64,000 nucleotides of DNA. Origin: an uncultured Planctomycetia bacterium (GTDB taxonomy: Bacteria; Omnitrophota; Gorgyraeia; 2-01-FULL-45-10). The position numbers and the translations under genes were made by a program. The stretch covers positions 78,257 to 142,256 of the forward strand of contig CAYSSS010000001.1 of the NCBI GenBank assembly GCA_964433975.1, read 5' to 3'. Every line of letters begins with the position of its first letter. The first letter of the stretch is position 1. Under the pieces are notes generated by a model that ran no database searches, had not been told where the DNA came from, and worked only from the letters and a program-made list of their open reading frames with translations. Below are positions 2,044 through 47,971 of the stretch, piece by piece.

Positions 2044-3373
2044 GGAATGGCTTGATAGGCTGATAGTGCTGTCTTTATGCAGTATGATATTTACTCTGCC
2101 GTTTTCAAAATCAGCGGTGGAGATATGCATAATAACCGCTTTTGTGTTATGGATTTTAAAAAGATCGTTATCGTACGACCCAAAGGTCCCCCTTATACGA
2201 ATATTTAAACCGCCCAGTTCAAAATTAAATCTTCCAATATATTTATTTATTTTTGCCGGATTTTTATCGGTCGTCGCTAGCGCCTCAGTTTCGCTAAGCC
2301 TTAAAGGTATATTTTCCAAGCTGCTCAAAGAGGTGATTTTGTATTTTTTGGTGATAGAAACTATAAATAATAGAAAAAGACTGCACTTTGTTTTAATATT
2401 CATGGTACTGTCCATGCTACTTATAGGCGCGGACGGGATCTTTCAGTTCAGTACATACCGGGATTTTTTAAGGGGTTATCTGCAGGAAGGGAGGATTACG
2501 GCTTCTTTCAATACCGCCAATGGCCTAGGCGGTTGGATCACAGTTATGTTGCCGTTGGCTCTTGGCATGATCTTTACAGGAAAAGCTCCACGGCCGAAGC
2601 AGGCCTTTAAGTTTATACTATTTTTTTTATCGTGTGTTTTGTTGTTTTGTCTAGTGATGACTCGCTCGAGGGGAGCATGGGTGGGATCAGCTTTTGCCAT
2701 GATTTTTTTCATTGTATGTAAAAAAAACAGAGTATTTTTTATCGGGATGGCTATCATGTCGGTGCTGTGTATTTTTTTTCTTGCGTACTTGGTATGTGCA
2801 CATCCGGGGTTTACCGAGTTGCTCAGAGAATCTGTGAGCTTCAGCGCAAATGACGGCCATTTATCTTTTGTTAGAGATTTTTTTATCTCAGTCAAAAATT
2901 ACGCAGTCCAGATCATGCTAAAAACAGATATCGTAAGGACCCATTTATGGCGGGAGGCGCTATCGGTCATTAAAGACTTTCCTGTTTTTGGATGCGGCTT
3001 AAATACGTATTCTATTGTTGCCCCTGGTTACAAAGGTGATATTGGAGGAGAGGCCGGATTTTATCCGCACAACTCTTATCTTCAAATGGCTGCTGAAACT
3101 GGAATTGTTGGGTTGGCTTCTTTTCTTATTGTTGTGATAAGCTTATTCAGGGTCTCTATTAAGAATCTACAGAAGATCAAAGAAGCGTTTTACAACAGCA
3201 TATTGATCGGGTTATTGGCCGGATTATTCGGTTTTTTGGTGCATAGTTTTTTTGATGTTAATTTATACGCCTTGCAATTAGTTAATTTAATGTGGTTTGT
3301 CATGGGGTTGATTATTGCTGTTCAGAGAATAGCATTGAAGGAAGAAAGTAAGTCGTTAGGATATAATGCCTAA
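2018..3373 (+). CDS. O-antigen ligase / Wzy_C-domain polytopic membrane protein (WaaL or PglL-type O-oligosaccharyltransferase-like).
   Basis: 451 aa with many TM segments. The loop motif YPHNSYLQMAAETGIVGL matches the Wzy_C signature (H-N-x-Y-L-x-x-x-x-E-x-G). The start is ambiguous between 2018 and 2030. Confidence 0.7.
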   Translation: MVNTMAVNREWLDRLIVLSLCSMIFTLPFSKSAVEICIITAFVLWILKRSLSYDPKVPLIRIFKPPSSKLNLPIYLFIFAGFLSVVASASVSLSLKGIFSKLLKEVILYFLVIETINNRKRLHFVLIFMVLSMLLIGADGIFQFSTYRDFLRGYLQEGRITASFNTANGLGGWITVMLPLALGMIFTGKAPRPKQAFKFILFFLSCVLLFCLVMTRSRGAWVGSAFAMIFFIVCKKNRVFFIGMAIMSVLCIFFLAYLVCAHPGFTELLRESVSFSANDGHLSFVRDFFISVKNYAVQIMLKTDIVRTHLWREALSVIKDFPVFGCGLNTYSIVAPGYKGDIGGEAGFYPHNSYLQMAAETGIVGLASFLIVVISLFRVSIKNLQKIKEAFYNSILIGLLAGLFGFLVHSFFDVNLYALQLVNLMWFVMGLIIAVQRIALKEESKSLGYNA

Positions 3374-4178
3374 AAACAGAAAACCTCAATCGTTAAAACT
3401 TGGTTGTTTAAAGGATCCCCGTGATTTACGTGACATTCCAATGGGGCTGGTCCTGCCTCCGATACCGCTACCCGATAAAACCGATTATACGGTCAGCATG
3501 ACCCCTGTTAGAAATCAGGGCAATGAAGGAACGTGCGTGGCGTTTGCAAGTGTTGTAGGTATAAAAGAGTATCAGGATTCCAGAGAGTATAAGAAGATTA
3601 TAGATTTATCGCCGCGGTATAACTATAGCCTGTGCAAGAAAAATGACGGCAGCCCCGAAGAAGAGGGCACATATCCCAGGGTCGCAATGAAGATGCTGCT
3701 GAGCTTCGGTACGCCTCCCGAGAGATATTGGCCGTATAAGCCCCATCAAATTGATAAACCGAAACACGGTGCCGATAAGGCAGCAATGAAGTATCGCATA
3801 AAAGCCTACGCTCGTATCAAAACTAACCTTGAAATGAAACGAAGCCTGGTTATCAATGGTCCGTTCATGGCGGGCGTAGATGTGTACGAGTCGTGGTTTA
3901 CAGAGAAGGCCTCTAAAACCGGACTGATACCTATGCCTATAAAGTCCGACCAGTATCAGGGCGGTCATGCCATATGCATAGTCGGTTATGATGACAAAAG
4001 GAAGCTATTTAAATTCAAGAACTCTTGGGGTGATGATTGGGGAGATAGTGGATATGGTTATCTAACCTACGACTATATGAAACAATATTGCGTTGATGCC
4101 TGGAGCGCCACAGATTTAATTGAGAATCCGATGGCGCTGGTAAGTAAGATAGAAGAGGTTTTGGTACGGTATGCCTGA
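3366..4178 (+). CDS. Papain-like cysteine peptidase (family C1A-like), with no obvious signal peptide.
   Basis: The catalytic motifs are Q-x5-C (QGNEGTCVAFA), His (GGHAICIVGYDD) and Asn (NSWGDDWGDSGYGY). All three are spaced as in papain. Length is 270 aa. Confidence 0.8.
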   Translation: MPKNRKPQSLKLGCLKDPRDLRDIPMGLVLPPIPLPDKTDYTVSMTPVRNQGNEGTCVAFASVVGIKEYQDSREYKKIIDLSPRYNYSLCKKNDGSPEEEGTYPRVAMKMLLSFGTPPERYWPYKPHQIDKPKHGADKAAMKYRIKAYARIKTNLEMKRSLVINGPFMAGVDVYESWFTEKASKTGLIPMPIKSDQYQGGHAICIVGYDDKRKLFKFKNSWGDDWGDSGYGYLTYDYMKQYCVDAWSATDLIENPMALVSKIEEVLVRYA

Positions 4179-5765
4179 TTATATTCTGGGAATATCGGCG
4201 TTCTATAATGATTCCGCCGCCGCGCTGCTTAAAGACGGCGAGATAATAGCTGCGGCCCAGGAAGAACGCTTTACGCGTAAAAAGCACGACCCAAGTTTTC
4301 CCAAAAATGCAATATCATATTGCTTGCGCGAAGCAGGTATCGGCAAGGCAGATCTTGATCTAATGGTATTTCATGATGGCAGCTATAAAAAAGACGTAAA
4401 AAAAAACTAAAATTTCGCGGCAAGCAGCTATTTTGCAAACATCACTACGCTCAGGCGGCAAGCGCTTTTTATCCGTCCCCATTCAATAAAGCCGCGATAC
4501 TTGTAGTTGATGGATCAAATGCTCAGGTAGCGGCAGCTTTTGGCAGTGGCACAGACAATTCAATAAAAATTCACTCCTCTATAAAATTCCCGAATTCCAT
4601 AGGGTTGCTATATTCCGTATTTACGCATTATTGCGGATTCAATCCCGATGCTGATGAGTATAAGTTAATGGGGTTGGCTCCTTATGGCAAGCCGGTTTAT
4701 GTTGACCTGATTATGGAGAAGCTTATTAAGCTGAGAATCGACGGTACTTATCGTATAAATTCGAATTACTTTACTTTCCGGGCGAAGCATAAAAAATCCA
4801 ATAAGAAGTTCACAGATCTCTTCGGCGGCCCCCCAAGAAAAAAAGATGACGAGATAGAAAAAAAACATAAGGACCTCGCGCGTTCTGTCCAAGCCGTCAC
4901 GGAGATTGCTTTGATGAACATGGTGAATCGCTTGTACGGGAAAACAAGGCTGGAAAACCTTTGTATGTCAGGTGAAGTGGCGCATAATTGCGTTGCGAAT
5001 GGTAGAATATTAAGGGAAGGGCCTTTTAAGAGGGTGTGGATACAGCCAGCGCCTTCCAGCGCTGGGTGCGCTCTCGGGGCAGCATTTTTAGGTTGGCATG
5101 AATACATGGGCAAGCTCCGAAAAGTCAGCAGGGCCAGAGATTTGCAGAAAGCGAGCCTTCTGGGCCCATCGTTCTCCGATGAAGAAATAGAAAGCTATTT
5201 AGAAGAAAATAATATAAAATATCAAAAATTGGCGAGAGCGGCCCTTTTAGCAAAAGTTGCCGGTTTTCTGGCTGACCAAAGAATAGTTGGGTGGTTCCAG
5301 GGCAGGATGGAGTTCGGCCCCCGCGCTCTGGGGAACCGTAGTATTCTGGCGGATCCCAGGTCAAAAGATATGCGCGATATTATTAATTCAAAAATCAAAT
5401 TCAGGGAAAGTTTCAGGCCATTTGCGCCAAGCGTGCTTCTGGAAAAATCACGGAACTTCTTTGATCTGGAATACGAAAGCCCATACATGCTTTTTGTGTC
5501 AACGGTTAAAAGGAGCGGATTTCCGGCCATAACACATGTTGACGGCTCAGCTAGGGTGCAAACAGTAAAGCATGAAGACAACCCTCTTTTTTATGATTTA
5601 ATAGGGCAGTTTTATAAAGACCACGGTTGCCCCATGGTTATAAATACATCTTTTAACAGGATGGGGGAGCCGATAGTCTGCACGCCTGAGGATGCTTACG
5701 GATGTTTTATGAATACCGAAATGGATTATTTAGTTATGGGTTCATTTATTATTGGAAAGGTTTAG
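4171..5765 (+). pseudogene. NodU/CmcH-family carbamoyltransferase split by a frameshift at an A9 homopolymer (4398-4406). It is either a phase-variable or inactivated gene, or a homopolymer sequencing error.
   Basis: ORF 4171-4410 encodes the family N-terminus (MPDYILGISAFYNDSAAALLKDGEIIAAAQEERFTRKKHD..DLDLMVFHDGS). The adjacent frame continues without a gap with LKFRGKQLFCKHHYAQAASAFYPSPFNKAAILVVDGS..EYKLMGLAPYGKP..., running into the annotated ORF 4605-5765, which carries the C-terminal NodU motifs (GRMEFGPRALGNRSIL, NTSFN). A single +1 change (A10) in the A-run would restore one ~530 aa ORF. Confidence 0.6.
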
Positions 5766-25576: not shown

Positions 25577-25807
25577 TCACCCCATCCTAATGATAACGAA
25601 TAACTAGTAATGATTTTTGTTGCATTCATAGCGATATGGGGTAAACTGTGAGGCAGCGATAACGTCAAATAACGCTTGACTTCGCATAATGTTTCTATAA
25701 AATGCTATATACGGTTGACAAGCTTATCAAAATTTAGAGGCATACCGGTTGTAAAAATTGAGGACTGTCATTTGATTAAACAAGAAAAATCGACAAAAGG
25801 ATAGAAT

Positions 25808-26539: not shown

Positions 26540-26717
26540 GTATAACCTATATTCAAGCGTTCTGAACCCGACATCAAAAGGCAATCTATCAAGATCGTGT
26601 CTTAACCCTACCATAAATGATGTAACTCTCTACGCCACATACAGAGGCCTCTTCAGCGTATTCGCCAAATGGACCTCTCGTCACAATTGGCTCCTCTTTT
26701 AGTGTGATTCAGCAACT

Positions 26718-26757
26718 CTAATGACTACTAATGACTAGTAATTACTAGTAATGAATT
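26718..26757 (+). repeat. Four tandem imperfect 10 bp repeats (ctaatgacta / ctaatgacta / gtaattacta / gtaatgaatt) immediately upstream of a promoter. Candidate operator or iteron-like site.
   Basis: Read directly from the sequence. The related motif ctaatgata...actagtaatga recurs at 25588-25614. Confidence 0.6.
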
Positions 26758-26760
26758 CAG

Positions 26761-26789
26761 TTGACATTTGCAATGATCTGGGGTATCAT
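26761..26789 (+). promoter_or_regulatory. Near-consensus sigma70-type promoter, TTGACA-N17-TATCAT.
   Basis: -35 TTGACA at 26761-26766, a 17 bp spacer, and -10 TATCAT at 26784-26789. The RBS AAAGG at 26801-26805 lies 7 nt before the ATG at 26813. Confidence 0.55.
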
Positions 26790-26812
26790 AAGTCAAAAAG
26801 AAAGGTGTGATC

Positions 26813-27052
26813 ATGGAAATAAACCCGCATGAGGTGTACACCACCGAAGAGGCTCAGCGCATTCTTAAGATAAGCCCTTCTACTACAATGAGGCTGATTA
26901 AGAAAGGGATGATACGAACTGCTAAGGTCGGCAAACAATATCGTATTCTTGGTAAGGAGCTATTGAGGGTGGTCTCTCCTAAGCTTGAGGATAAGGTTGG
27001 CAGGATCTATAATAAAGGACGGAAGTGGGTCCACGAGGGCATTGAGGAGTAA
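26813..27052 (+). CDS. Small helix-turn-helix DNA-binding protein (excisionase/MerR-like HTH_17 family). Putative transcriptional regulator.
   Basis: EVYTTEEAQRILKISPSTTMRLIKKGMIRTAKVGKQYRILGKELL matches the excisionase-family HTH pattern. The six-frame track starts at the GTG at 26807, but the ATG at 26813 has the better RBS. Confidence 0.65.
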   Translation: MEINPHEVYTTEEAQRILKISPSTTMRLIKKGMIRTAKVGKQYRILGKELLRVVSPKLEDKVGRIYNKGRKWVHEGIEE

Positions 27053-27060
27053 GGATATTT

Positions 27061-43828: not shown

Positions 43829-44596
43829 ATGAGGATCATAGGTATTGTACCTGCAAGGATGGCATCGACGAGATTTCCGGGCAAACCGCTTGCCAAAATA
43901 CTCGGCAAGCCCATGATAGAGCATGTCTATTCGAGGAGCATGCTTTGCAAAAAATTGAACTTTGTTTACATAGCTACTCCGGATAAAGAAATACAAGACT
44001 ACTGCAAAAATAACAATATGAATGTTGTAATGACTCGCGATACCCACGAGAGGGCATCGGACAGGGCTGCCGAGGCAGTGCTCAAGATAGAAAAAAAAAG
44101 CGGAAAAAAAATAGAAATAGTCGTCATGATACAGGGCGACGAGCCGATGCTGCAGTATGAGATGATAGATAGGGTTATAAGGCCCATGATAAGCGATAGA
44201 AGTATCAACGCGGTTAATCTGACGGCGCCGCTGAAATCTAAACAGGAGCAGAACGACCCCAACCAGGTCAAAGTAGTCGTGGATAAAAAAGGTTTCGCGC
44301 TCTATTTTTCAAGAGAGCCGATCCCATCGCGGAAGAAGGGCGCCAAGGATGTGCCGATGCAAAGACAGATAGGCCTTATTGCTTTCAGAAGAGATTTTCT
44401 TATAAAGTTCAATGAACTTGCCCCAACACCGCTCGAAAAGATAGAATCAGTTGATATGCTCAGGATATTGGAGCACGGGTACAGGCTCAAGATGGTACCC
44501 GGCGCGTTTAATGCCTATGGCGTGGACACACCGCAAGACTTAAAAAAAGTGGAGCGATTGATGAAAGCTGAGGTGAGAAGCAATGCGCAAAAATAA
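43829..44596 (+). CDS. kdsB: 3-deoxy-manno-octulosonate cytidylyltransferase (CMP-Kdo synthetase family).
   Basis: MRIIGIVPARMASTRFPGKPLAKILGKPMIEHV...IQGDEPM...VKVVVDKKGFALYFSREPIP...GVDTPQDL aligns motif for motif with KdsB. Confidence 0.85.
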   Translation: MRIIGIVPARMASTRFPGKPLAKILGKPMIEHVYSRSMLCKKLNFVYIATPDKEIQDYCKNNNMNVVMTRDTHERASDRAAEAVLKIEKKSGKKIEIVVMIQGDEPMLQYEMIDRVIRPMISDRSINAVNLTAPLKSKQEQNDPNQVKVVVDKKGFALYFSREPIPSRKKGAKDVPMQRQIGLIAFRRDFLIKFNELAPTPLEKIESVDMLRILEHGYRLKMVPGAFNAYGVDTPQDLKKVERLMKAEVRSNAQK

Positions 44597-47201: not shown

Positions 47202-47968
47202 TGGCCAGGGAAATGCGTGAGTTAGAGAAATTGTTATTTGTTGCTGAAAAAGCGGCATGCCGCGCCGGCGCGTTCTTATCCCGGACGAAAATAAAAGATA
47301 ATAAAATACTGACCGATCTTGGAAAAGACGTAAAGATTTCCGCTGATCTACATTCGGAAAAGATCATCATAAATATGTTAAGAGCTAAATCTGAATTTGA
47401 TATTCTTACGGAGGAGAGCGGGTTTCTGCCGGGAGCTTCCGGAAAGCATTTACTTTGGATCGTTGACCCGATTGACGGAACGATGAATTTTTTACGCGGG
47501 ATCCCGATAAACTGCGTTTCTATAGGGCTATGGAGAGGCAATGAGCCTTTGCTCGGGGTAATTTATGACTTCAATAAAAATGAACTTTTTTCCGGCATAG
47601 CCCGTAAAATCGCGTACTTGAACAAAAAACGTATAAAAGTGAGCGCTCTTTCCAAAGAAGCCAGCGCCGTACTTTGCACGGGTTTTCCGGTAAATACAGA
47701 TTTTTCATCGAGAGGGCTATTAAGATTTACAAAGCAAATCCAAAACTATAAAAAGGTCCGGCTGATCGGGTCCGCTGCTTTGTCGCTCGCCTATGTTGCG
47801 GCGGGTAGAGCTGATGTTTATCGTGAAAACAATATAATGCTCTGGGATGTTGCCGCCGGCGCAGCAATTATTACCGGGGCCGGCGGAAATGTTCAGATGC
47901 TGCCTTTGGCAAAAGAAAATGCTTTTTCGGTATACGCTTCTAATAGGCGGTTATTCAGGCAGAGGTAA
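47201..47968 (+). CDS. Inositol-monophosphatase-family sugar phosphatase.
   Basis: WIVDPIDGTMNFLRGIP and ...WD.AAG motifs. The start was moved to the ATG at 47201, which overlaps the upstream stop (TAATG). Confidence 0.75.
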   Translation: MAREMRELEKLLFVAEKAACRAGAFLSRTKIKDNKILTDLGKDVKISADLHSEKIIINMLRAKSEFDILTEESGFLPGASGKHLLWIVDPIDGTMNFLRGIPINCVSIGLWRGNEPLLGVIYDFNKNELFSGIARKIAYLNKKRIKVSALSKEASAVLCTGFPVNTDFSSRGLLRFTKQIQNYKKVRLIGSAALSLAYVAAGRADVYRENNIMLWDVAAGAAIITGAGGNVQMLPLAKENAFSVYASNRRLFRQR

Positions 47969-47971
47969 AGA

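Follow-up and report, generated by a model that had tools for sequence, protein, structure and literature searches.

How does a gene whose two parts lie in different reading frames give rise to an enzyme, and what keeps the break in place? The question is raised by a locus in a 64,000-nucleotide (nt) stretch of contig CAYSSS010000001.1, from an uncultured bacterium of the Omnitrophota lineage; the whole of this stretch is called the window below. Here a gene for a carbamoyltransferase of the NodU/CmcH/TobZ type changes frame at a run of nine adenines (A9), and one additional A would restore a continuous enzyme. We describe the same break in a set of diverged relatives, with purifying selection on both sides of it, and conclude that the full enzyme is most probably made by programmed recoding at the run, during either transcription or translation.

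The A9 junction, its conservation and the selection on both frames

The frame break lies where a sequence-only reading of this DNA had put it (Table 1). Frame 1, the zero frame, passes from its ATG to GAC GTA AAA AAA AAC and an immediate TAA, giving a product of 79 amino acids (aa) with the C-terminus DVKKN. Frame 3, the -1 frame, is closed by a TAA shortly before the run and then stays open as far as a TAG at 5763-5765. The two frames are jointly open solely at 4389-4407, and the run, of exactly nine A, occupies half of that overlap. The same reading had proposed that one extra A yields a continuous enzyme of about 530 aa, and this proved correct: the repaired product has 531 aa, contains both a Carbam_trans_N and a Carbam_trans_C domain, and is in register across the join with the intact relative P0003. 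The gene called downstream of the junction in the window encodes 365 aa (P0001), and an exact look-up of this product gave no contig. An A9 run taken alone is within chance: the window has two, and dinucleotide shuffles predict 4.8. It is the conservation of this run, not its mere presence, that exceeds chance.

DNA spanning the junction was obtained for six lineages in ten samples or contigs (the window, L095, L096/L097, L098, L099/L100 and L101/L102/L103), which come from JGI, ENA (with k141 contig names) and Logan records; L095 was found by following a neighbouring radical S-adenosylmethionine (radical-SAM) protein into a related genome. The six lineages are 68-76% identical in protein, and T-A9-C with the same frame break stands at the same codon in 10/10 contigs and 6/6 lineages. 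L095 has the same 79-aa open reading frame (ORF), the same truncated downstream call and an identical GTAAAAAAAAACTAAA, in flanks that differ at about a quarter of positions. The Val codon GTA that precedes the lysines has become Leu TTA in L101, and the run is still nine. With the codon usage of the same genes (AAA for 68% of Lys, GTA for 28% of Val), the chance of finding AAA at 18/18 Lys codons and a final A in all six of the Val/Leu codons before them is about 5e-7; run length is thus conserved at the nucleotide level, in 6/6 lineages, beyond what the protein needs.

A search with the 79-aa fragment extended the pattern to 46 distinct clusters of N-terminal fragments (clustered at 90% identity), all with a [V/L]KKN junction and 46/46 out of frame. 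About half of these stop at the junction, and the others continue for 13-32 out-of-frame codons as CNFAVSRYSTNTT...PLYL, the result of translating the true downstream coding sequence in the zero frame. Gene callers split the gene into two ORFs in every relative, and the identical 79-aa product of the window is recorded by NCBI, JGI, ENA and Logan. Nearly all named homologues of the enzyme belong to Omnitrophota, and the radical-SAM protein encoded near it in the window clusters at 90% identity or more with an NCBI protein from a Candidatus Omnitrophota metagenome-assembled genome; the organism is probably a member of this phylum.

When the repaired protein was searched against a collection of 5.8 billion proteins, its close relatives yielded no in-frame allele of the frameshift clade; an in-frame close relative would have ranked top in that search, and none is present in the collection. 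The best full-length relatives are 63-71% identical to the merged protein and have the run absent or deleted; P0003, which never had it, reads GAG ATA CGA GGA AAG CTT. A junction-spanning profile search gave no short in-frame fragment across the junction among the listed proteins of up to 160 aa. Scanning genome contigs with the merged protein gave relatives of 43-52% identity among the matches listed, and a scan of metagenome contigs with a degenerate DNA pattern for GF[PS][AS]ITHVDxSAR gave 8 loci and no close relative containing the junction. The contig of P0055 ends before the junction. The sequence-only reading had suggested looking for an intact ORF in related genomes; the close relatives with DNA across the junction have the identical A9 break instead. 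Recurrent recent mutation from A10 to A9 was also considered and was rejected, there being no A10 allele among the relatives.

Selection was compared between the window and L095, which share 75% aa identity at a synonymous divergence (dS) of about 1.3. The ratio of nonsynonymous to synonymous divergence (dN/dS, or omega) was 0.118 for the zero-frame segment, 0.121 for codons 80-165, the part of the -1 frame that lies past the run and ahead of any possible start codon, and 0.112 for codons 167-531. Both frames are required for one product, and both are under purifying selection (omega 0.11-0.12). In five lineages, one +1 repair is enough to give an intact product of 531-536 aa, with no further lesions. 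Across five lineages, variability at codon positions 1/2/3 was 0.18/0.09/0.45 for the zero frame upstream of the run and 0.19/0.20/0.48 for the -1 frame right downstream of it; third-position variation follows the zero frame up to the run and the -1 frame beyond it.

In 6/6 lineages the -1 frame becomes open 9 nt ahead of the run, and in each of them it then lacks any ATG, GTG or TTG over the 43-90 codons that follow the run. These start-less codons encode the conserved HxxxH-AASAFYPSPF-AAIL-DG core. As the -1 frame offers no start codon there, the downstream part needs ribosomes arriving from the upstream frame, not independent initiation.

Table 1 Features of the probably recoded carbamoyltransferase gene, in window coordinates
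Feature	Position	Strand	Description
Recoded carbamoyltransferase gene, whole	4171..5765	+	531 aa with one extra A; Kae1-like Carbam_trans_N and YrdC-like Carbam_trans_C
Zero-frame segment (frame 1)	4171..4410	+	79-aa ORF from ATG 4171, ending ...SYKKDVKKN-TAA; first strands and helix of the Kae1-like domain
A9 run, putative slip site	4398..4406	+	AAA AAA AAA in the -1 frame, K77-K79
TAA stop of the -1 frame	4386..4388	+	Inside TAT AAA; 5' limit of the shift window; 9 nt upstream of the run in 6/6 lineages
TAA stop of the zero frame	4408..4410	+	Directly after the slip site; 3' limit of the shift window; not conserved
-1-frame segment (frame 3)	4389..5765	+	Residues ~77-531; first ATG/GTG/TTG is TTG 4605, 69 codons past the run
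HxxxH metal-binding motif, Kae1-like domain	4440..4454	+	Reads H-H-Y-A-Q; second ligand His replaced by Gln (CAG)

The encoded enzyme and its eroded copies

Against Pfam, the repaired protein matched Carbam_trans_N (PF02543) with an E-value of 2.5e-79 and Carbam_trans_C (PF16861) with an E-value of 1.4e-72. The second match spans profile positions 3-170 of 170, and the first is split into two stretches because the linker is short. The nearest solved structures are the carbamoyltransferases 7xb6, NovN, GdmN and TobZ (PDB matches 7xb6, 9s2t, 7vyj and 3ven). Both domains and the structural relatives agree on a NodU/CmcH/TobZ-type carbamoyltransferase, the family named in the sequence-only reading. 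An AlphaFold2 model of the merged protein forms a continuous two-domain fold with a mean predicted local distance difference test score (pLDDT) of 82 and a predicted template modelling score (pTM) of 0.83; in it, a short helix (residues 70-80, pLDDT ~70) ends at the Lys-Lys-Lys junction.

Typical homologues in the family have 606-609 aa and are 52-59% identical to the merged protein. The product of the window gene resembles the O-carbamoyltransferases TobZ, NodU, NovN and GdmN in its two-domain architecture and in its strong similarity to the solved structures, whereas in the window clade a 16-22-aa insertion and the C-terminal tail are absent and the linker before the HxxxH helix is ~45 aa shorter than in the typical 606-609-aa members. 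The short linker is a trait of the whole clade and not a lesion, which corrects an earlier note. The window allele also differs from those enzymes in carrying HxxxQ. The HxxxH motif, whose metal-ligand assignment we take over from TobZ, reads HHYAQ here, the second His having become Gln by a single third-position change in a column where at least 90% of 35 family members have His. The frameshift-bearing relatives L095, L096, L098 and L099 all keep an intact motif.

In a rough neighbour-joining tree, all frameshift-bearing genes form one clade, sister to the in-frame, run-less P0003. Two in-frame genes, P0002 (L083, 93-1610) and P0009 (L084, 2874-4409), are nested inside this clade. Both lack 17 codons (50 genomic nt) spanning the run, so that the frame is restored and the first His of HxxxH is lost. 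The tree is crude and the conclusion tentative, and it suggests a single origin of the frameshift with occasional escape by deletion. Erosion is also seen in another copy, found with identical sequence in two samples (L001, 1094-2632; L002, 3256-4794). It has a TAG at codon 10, in place of the Ser of a GIS motif, a 19-aa (57-nt) in-frame deletion, RQLAH instead of HHxxH, and a run of eight A; this may be a decaying copy. At 1503-1660 of L101, the frameshift-bearing gene keeps A9 after its Leu TTA, has RHQTY as its metal motif and is missing about 25 aa after the VADG strand.

Probable recoding at the run and the rival explanations

We hold with good confidence that the full enzyme is made by programmed recoding at A9, of one kind or the other. 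Our leading candidate for the main mechanism, at about even confidence, is transcriptional slippage that turns A9 into A10 in the mRNA. On this reading the gene would encode a functional glycan O-carbamoyltransferase that is permanently out of frame, in a probably Omnitrophota clade that keeps A9 between codons 76 and 79. Standard decoding would end at 4410, or after 13-32 junk codons in some relatives, and leave a short, probably useless N-terminal peptide; this zero-frame product, whose end is not conserved, is probably a by-product. RNA polymerase would realign on a 9-bp A:T hybrid and produce an A10 mRNA, which would be translated normally as ...DVKKKLKF..., and the 531-aa enzyme would arise only in those expression events in which the run gains one base. 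A -1 slip of the ribosome on A_AAA_AAA_AAC may contribute, and both mechanisms may act together.

A homopolymer of about 8-9 or more A/T at a frame junction is what a slippage site calls for, and A9 is of that length. Bacterial RNA polymerase slips efficiently in vivo on nine A/T, and its RNA:DNA hybrid has 9-10 bp. Thermus thermophilus dnaX uses a run of nine A, at which RNA polymerase mostly adds A's (PMC5009743), and reporters in E. coli showed 40% frameshifting with a 9-A cassette (PMC3711429). We favour slippage over a ribosomal shift because all nine A's are fixed, including the one at a third codon position that is dispensable for a slippery heptamer, because conserved or stable downstream structure, Shine-Dalgarno (SD)-like sequence and Rfam elements are all lacking at the junction, and because downstream synonymous variability is not depressed. 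RNAalifold, run on six sequences, gave a consensus of -5 kcal/mol and nothing within 60 nt downstream, and single-sequence folds downstream of the run were not unusually stable relative to shuffles (z from -0.6 to +0.6). No GGAGG-like sequence was found upstream, no Rfam family matched the junction at E up to 1, and no fall in synonymous variability was seen downstream of the run. The signal appears to consist of the run and nothing else, which is what transcriptional realignment would lead one to expect.

Programmed -1 ribosomal frameshifting, in which the mRNA stays A9 and the ribosome slips on A_AAA_AAA or on the IS1-type A_AAA_AAC to give DVKKK/NLKF..., is a possible but clearly less probable account. 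The zero-frame site GT[A AAA AAA AA]C does contain both of these heptamers, overlapping and of the X_XXY_YYZ form, in all six lineages, and the evidence from conservation and selection fits this account equally well. The IS1 site A_AAA_AAC is active without a known stimulator (PMC4066793). Yet a heptamer needs six to seven A's and all nine are fixed, the first of them as the third position of a Val or Leu codon, and nine is the length of the RNA polymerase hybrid. The variant A_AAA_AAG is used by no lineage, and the missing hairpin, pseudoknot and upstream SD-like element, although usual and not obligatory stimulators, matter since unstimulated sites are usually low-yield; nor does the undiminished synonymous variability downstream speak for a ribosomal signal.

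Several observations weigh against transcriptional slippage, and some of them favour the ribosome. The second A9 of the window (44091-44099) is in frame within an intact cytidylyltransferase gene, so that either slippage is tolerated there at a cost or slippage is not very efficient in this organism; a tolerated in-frame A9 counts in favour of the ribosomal route. L001/L002 keep the frame relation with only A8 (CGT AAA AAA AAC TGA) and retain the heptamer A_AAA_AAC followed directly by a stop, which fits ribosomal frameshifting better, although this copy, with its in-frame TAG, may be dead. The C after the run is invariant, and is kept even in L096, where the -1-frame codon has changed from Leu to Pro (CCG); this is a single case, consistent with a constraint from the heptamer. 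The window allele itself, with Gln at the second metal-ligand His, may be catalytically weakened; the conclusion of recoding at the level of the clade holds strongly despite HHYAQ in this copy. Against slippage it must also be weighed that its occurrence, its level (RNA or ribosome), its efficiency and dosing role, and the sugar substrate of the enzyme are points that we infer.

The sequence-only reading had regarded the locus as a candidate for slipped-strand phase variation, with the DNA tract of a population switching from A9 (off) to A10 (on) and back. The position of the homopolymer, in the first part of a gene for surface-glycan tailoring, does suggest such a switch, and poly-A/T tracts can be phase variable (PMC3711429). 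However, A9 was found in all ten contigs, with another length (A8) solely in the damaged L001/L002 copy, all 46 fragment clusters are out of frame with no in-frame close relative found, and the strong purifying selection implies long periods in the on-state, yet no lineage was sampled in it. We consider phase variation highly improbable. Slippage at the run, as that reading proposed, is retained as to its site, which is where the equivalent of one extra A restores the frame, but it is placed at the level of RNA or translation and not in heritable DNA switching. The same reading had allowed for a homopolymer error, with a true sequence of A10 and an intact gene. Homopolymers are indeed the classic site of error and the contig is metagenome-derived, but the same A9 recurs in ten assemblies from independent samples, different projects and different assemblers and pipelines, and the 79-aa ORF is recorded by Logan besides NCBI, JGI and ENA. 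The other A9 of the window, in frame, and about 85 A/T runs of 7-8 break none of the 54 ORFs, all but this gene's being unbroken. The probability left for a sequencing or assembly error is negligible.

A fixed pseudogene, in which the frameshift inactivates the gene and the window genome no longer makes the enzyme, was the remaining option of that reading, and we regard it as improbable. It would accommodate the change from His to Gln at a metal ligand, and the repeated regional erosion within the clade, seen in L001/L002 and L101 and, as loss of the linker and first His, in P0002 and P0009. In a decaying gene, however, omega would move towards 1 and lesions would be added, and here omega is about 0.12 on both halves over a dS of about 1.3, codon periodicity is intact, five lineages are free of lesions after the one repair, and an identical lesion occurs in 46 clusters. 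A true split gene, whose 79-aa peptide and separately initiated C-terminal protein would assemble without any frameshift, agrees with the two ORFs called in every relative. It is scarcely credible given a -1 frame that is start-less for 43-90 codons and whose first start position varies by lineage, in codons that are nevertheless conserved and selected, together with a zero-frame end that is not conserved, being an immediate stop or 13-32 junk codons. A two-subunit split enzyme was rejected on the same ground, the -1 frame having no start codon.

Genomic setting, possible role and known systems

The window holds 54 ORFs, is 97% coding and nearly single-stranded in gene orientation, and consists of one very long glycan biosynthesis cluster, in a genome of 44% GC. 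Apart from the carbamoyltransferase gene, its genes are intact, mostly separated or overlapping by a few bases, and include B12 radical-SAM enzymes and a PMT_2 glycosyltransferase. Upstream of the carbamoyltransferase lie an O-antigen-ligase-like gene and a papain-like peptidase gene; downstream are a PMT_2 glycosyltransferase, a B12 radical-SAM enzyme, sugar dehydratases and a GT2 gene. Neighbouring genes and window ORFs alike bear out the surface-glycan setting that the sequence-only reading had assumed. The only other A9 of the window, followed by A8 at 44104-44111, is read in frame (…LKIEKKSGKKIEIVVMIQGDEPM…) within an intact 255-aa cytidylyltransferase-like ORF (43829-44596); this run serves as a built-in check on sequencing accuracy and shows that the genome tolerates A9 when it is read in frame. 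No tRNA genes and no Rfam families were found in the window. Apparent gaps in the ORF map at 26540-27060 and 47202-47971 were examined as candidate broken genes and rejected, ordinary ORFs filling both.

The adjoining papain-family (Peptidase_C1) gene, at 3366-4178, overlaps the start of the carbamoyltransferase gene by 8 nt and usually follows a Wzy_C/O-antigen-ligase-like gene. The same neighbour is present in L084 (2078-2881), L096 (5181-6008), L098 (5211-6008) and L002 (1227-1964), with a separate ATPase gene between peptidase and carbamoyltransferase in L002. It is unusual for a polysaccharide locus to have a cysteine protease among its conserved genes. Genes of mobile or defence type (AAA_14/DUF4143 ATPase, AbiEii toxin) adjoin the carbamoyltransferase in L096 (7689-8852), L002 (2009-3238) and L099 (4601-5392), and the surroundings of this gene look like an insertion hotspot. 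Further along the window, the middle of the cluster contains an AT-rich gap (35% GC) of 231 nt at 25577-25807, and an 81-aa ORF at 26807-27052 (…ILKISPSTTMRLIKKGMIRTAKVGKQYRI…) looks, by eye, like a helix-turn-helix or excisionase-type protein. Gap and ORF could mark an operon boundary or an insertion remnant.

In an operon of abutting and overlapping ORFs, an obligatory frame change of low probability would hold the enzyme at a fixed, sub-stoichiometric fraction of its neighbours, and such a fixed low dose could make glycan carbamoylation partial. A bolder proposal, speculative and rather unlikely in our estimate, is that the fixed A9 is a regulatory device: how often slippage occurs would tune the dose of carbamoyltransferase by non-genetic means. 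Surface-glycan carbamoylation would then be partial or heterogeneous between cells, and a tunable slip rate would diversify the cell surface without genetic change. As an invariant C follows the run, slippage might rise when the next nucleoside triphosphate is scarce; reiterative transcription control offers an analogy for such a response of slippage to nucleotide pools. If this were true, the use of carbamoyl phosphate in glycan decoration would be tied to pyrimidine status, and the run-deleting restoration of the frame in P0002 and P0009 would be an escape from control.

Our preferred reading, programmed recoding at A9 with or without such a dosing role, has consequences for annotation. At least 46 public gene families now appear split into a small N-terminal ORF and a truncated carbamoyltransferase; an assessment of the quality or metabolism of metagenome-assembled genomes would class them as pseudogenes. 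Where homopolymer breaks are met in surface-glycan genes, tract-length variation should be seen before phase variation is concluded. Few ordinary, non-mobile genes of bacteria have a conserved programmed frameshift, and this would add a glycan-tailoring enzyme to them: a case that is deeply conserved (dS above 1), in a phylum known only from metagenomes, and with a minimal signal. In the library searched we found no paper linking carbamoyltransferases or Omnitrophota to frameshifting, and the GeneTack supplementary text files mention neither. The type of mechanism is well known; the gene family and the clade appear to be a new instance of it.

Among known systems, the window gene shares with T. 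thermophilus dnaX and with other cases of A/T-run realignment (insertion sequence (IS) elements, Chlorobi-type dnaX) a run within the coding region, here of nine A, and no other evident cis element; in those systems extra A's put part of the mRNA into another frame (PMC5009743, PMC3711429). It differs from T. thermophilus dnaX in that the long product there is in frame and the slip makes the short one, whereas here the long, functional product would require the slip. The dnaX and IS cases are also genes of replication and transposition, while this one encodes a glycan-tailoring enzyme. IS1 insAB' has the same zero-frame A_AAA_AAC, a -1 shift that joins an upstream ORF to a start-less downstream ORF, and no established stimulator (PMC4066793). 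E. coli dnaX, in contrast, uses A_AAA_AAG with SD and hairpin stimulators, both of which are lacking in the window gene. Compared with IS1 and E. coli dnaX, the run here is extended to nine and fixed at that length, and it lies in a chromosomal biosynthetic gene.

The contingency loci of Campylobacter, Neisseria and Haemophilus likewise have their homopolymer close to the 5' end of a gene that modifies surface glycans, where the out-of-frame state truncates the enzyme. Tracts at these loci, usually of G/C, are polymorphic in length between and within strains. In the window clade, by contrast, tract length and out-of-frame state are invariant across lineages with a dS above 1, with neither tract-length polymorphism nor mixed-frame alleles among the ten contigs and 46 clusters. 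Poly(A)-tract frameshifts in Buchnera and Blochmannia, according to the part of PMC5009743 that cites them, still yield functional protein through polymerase infidelity. Those lesions are scattered and lineage-specific, in degenerating AT-rich genomes; the break described here is a single site conserved throughout a clade, in a genome of 44% GC whose genes are otherwise intact.

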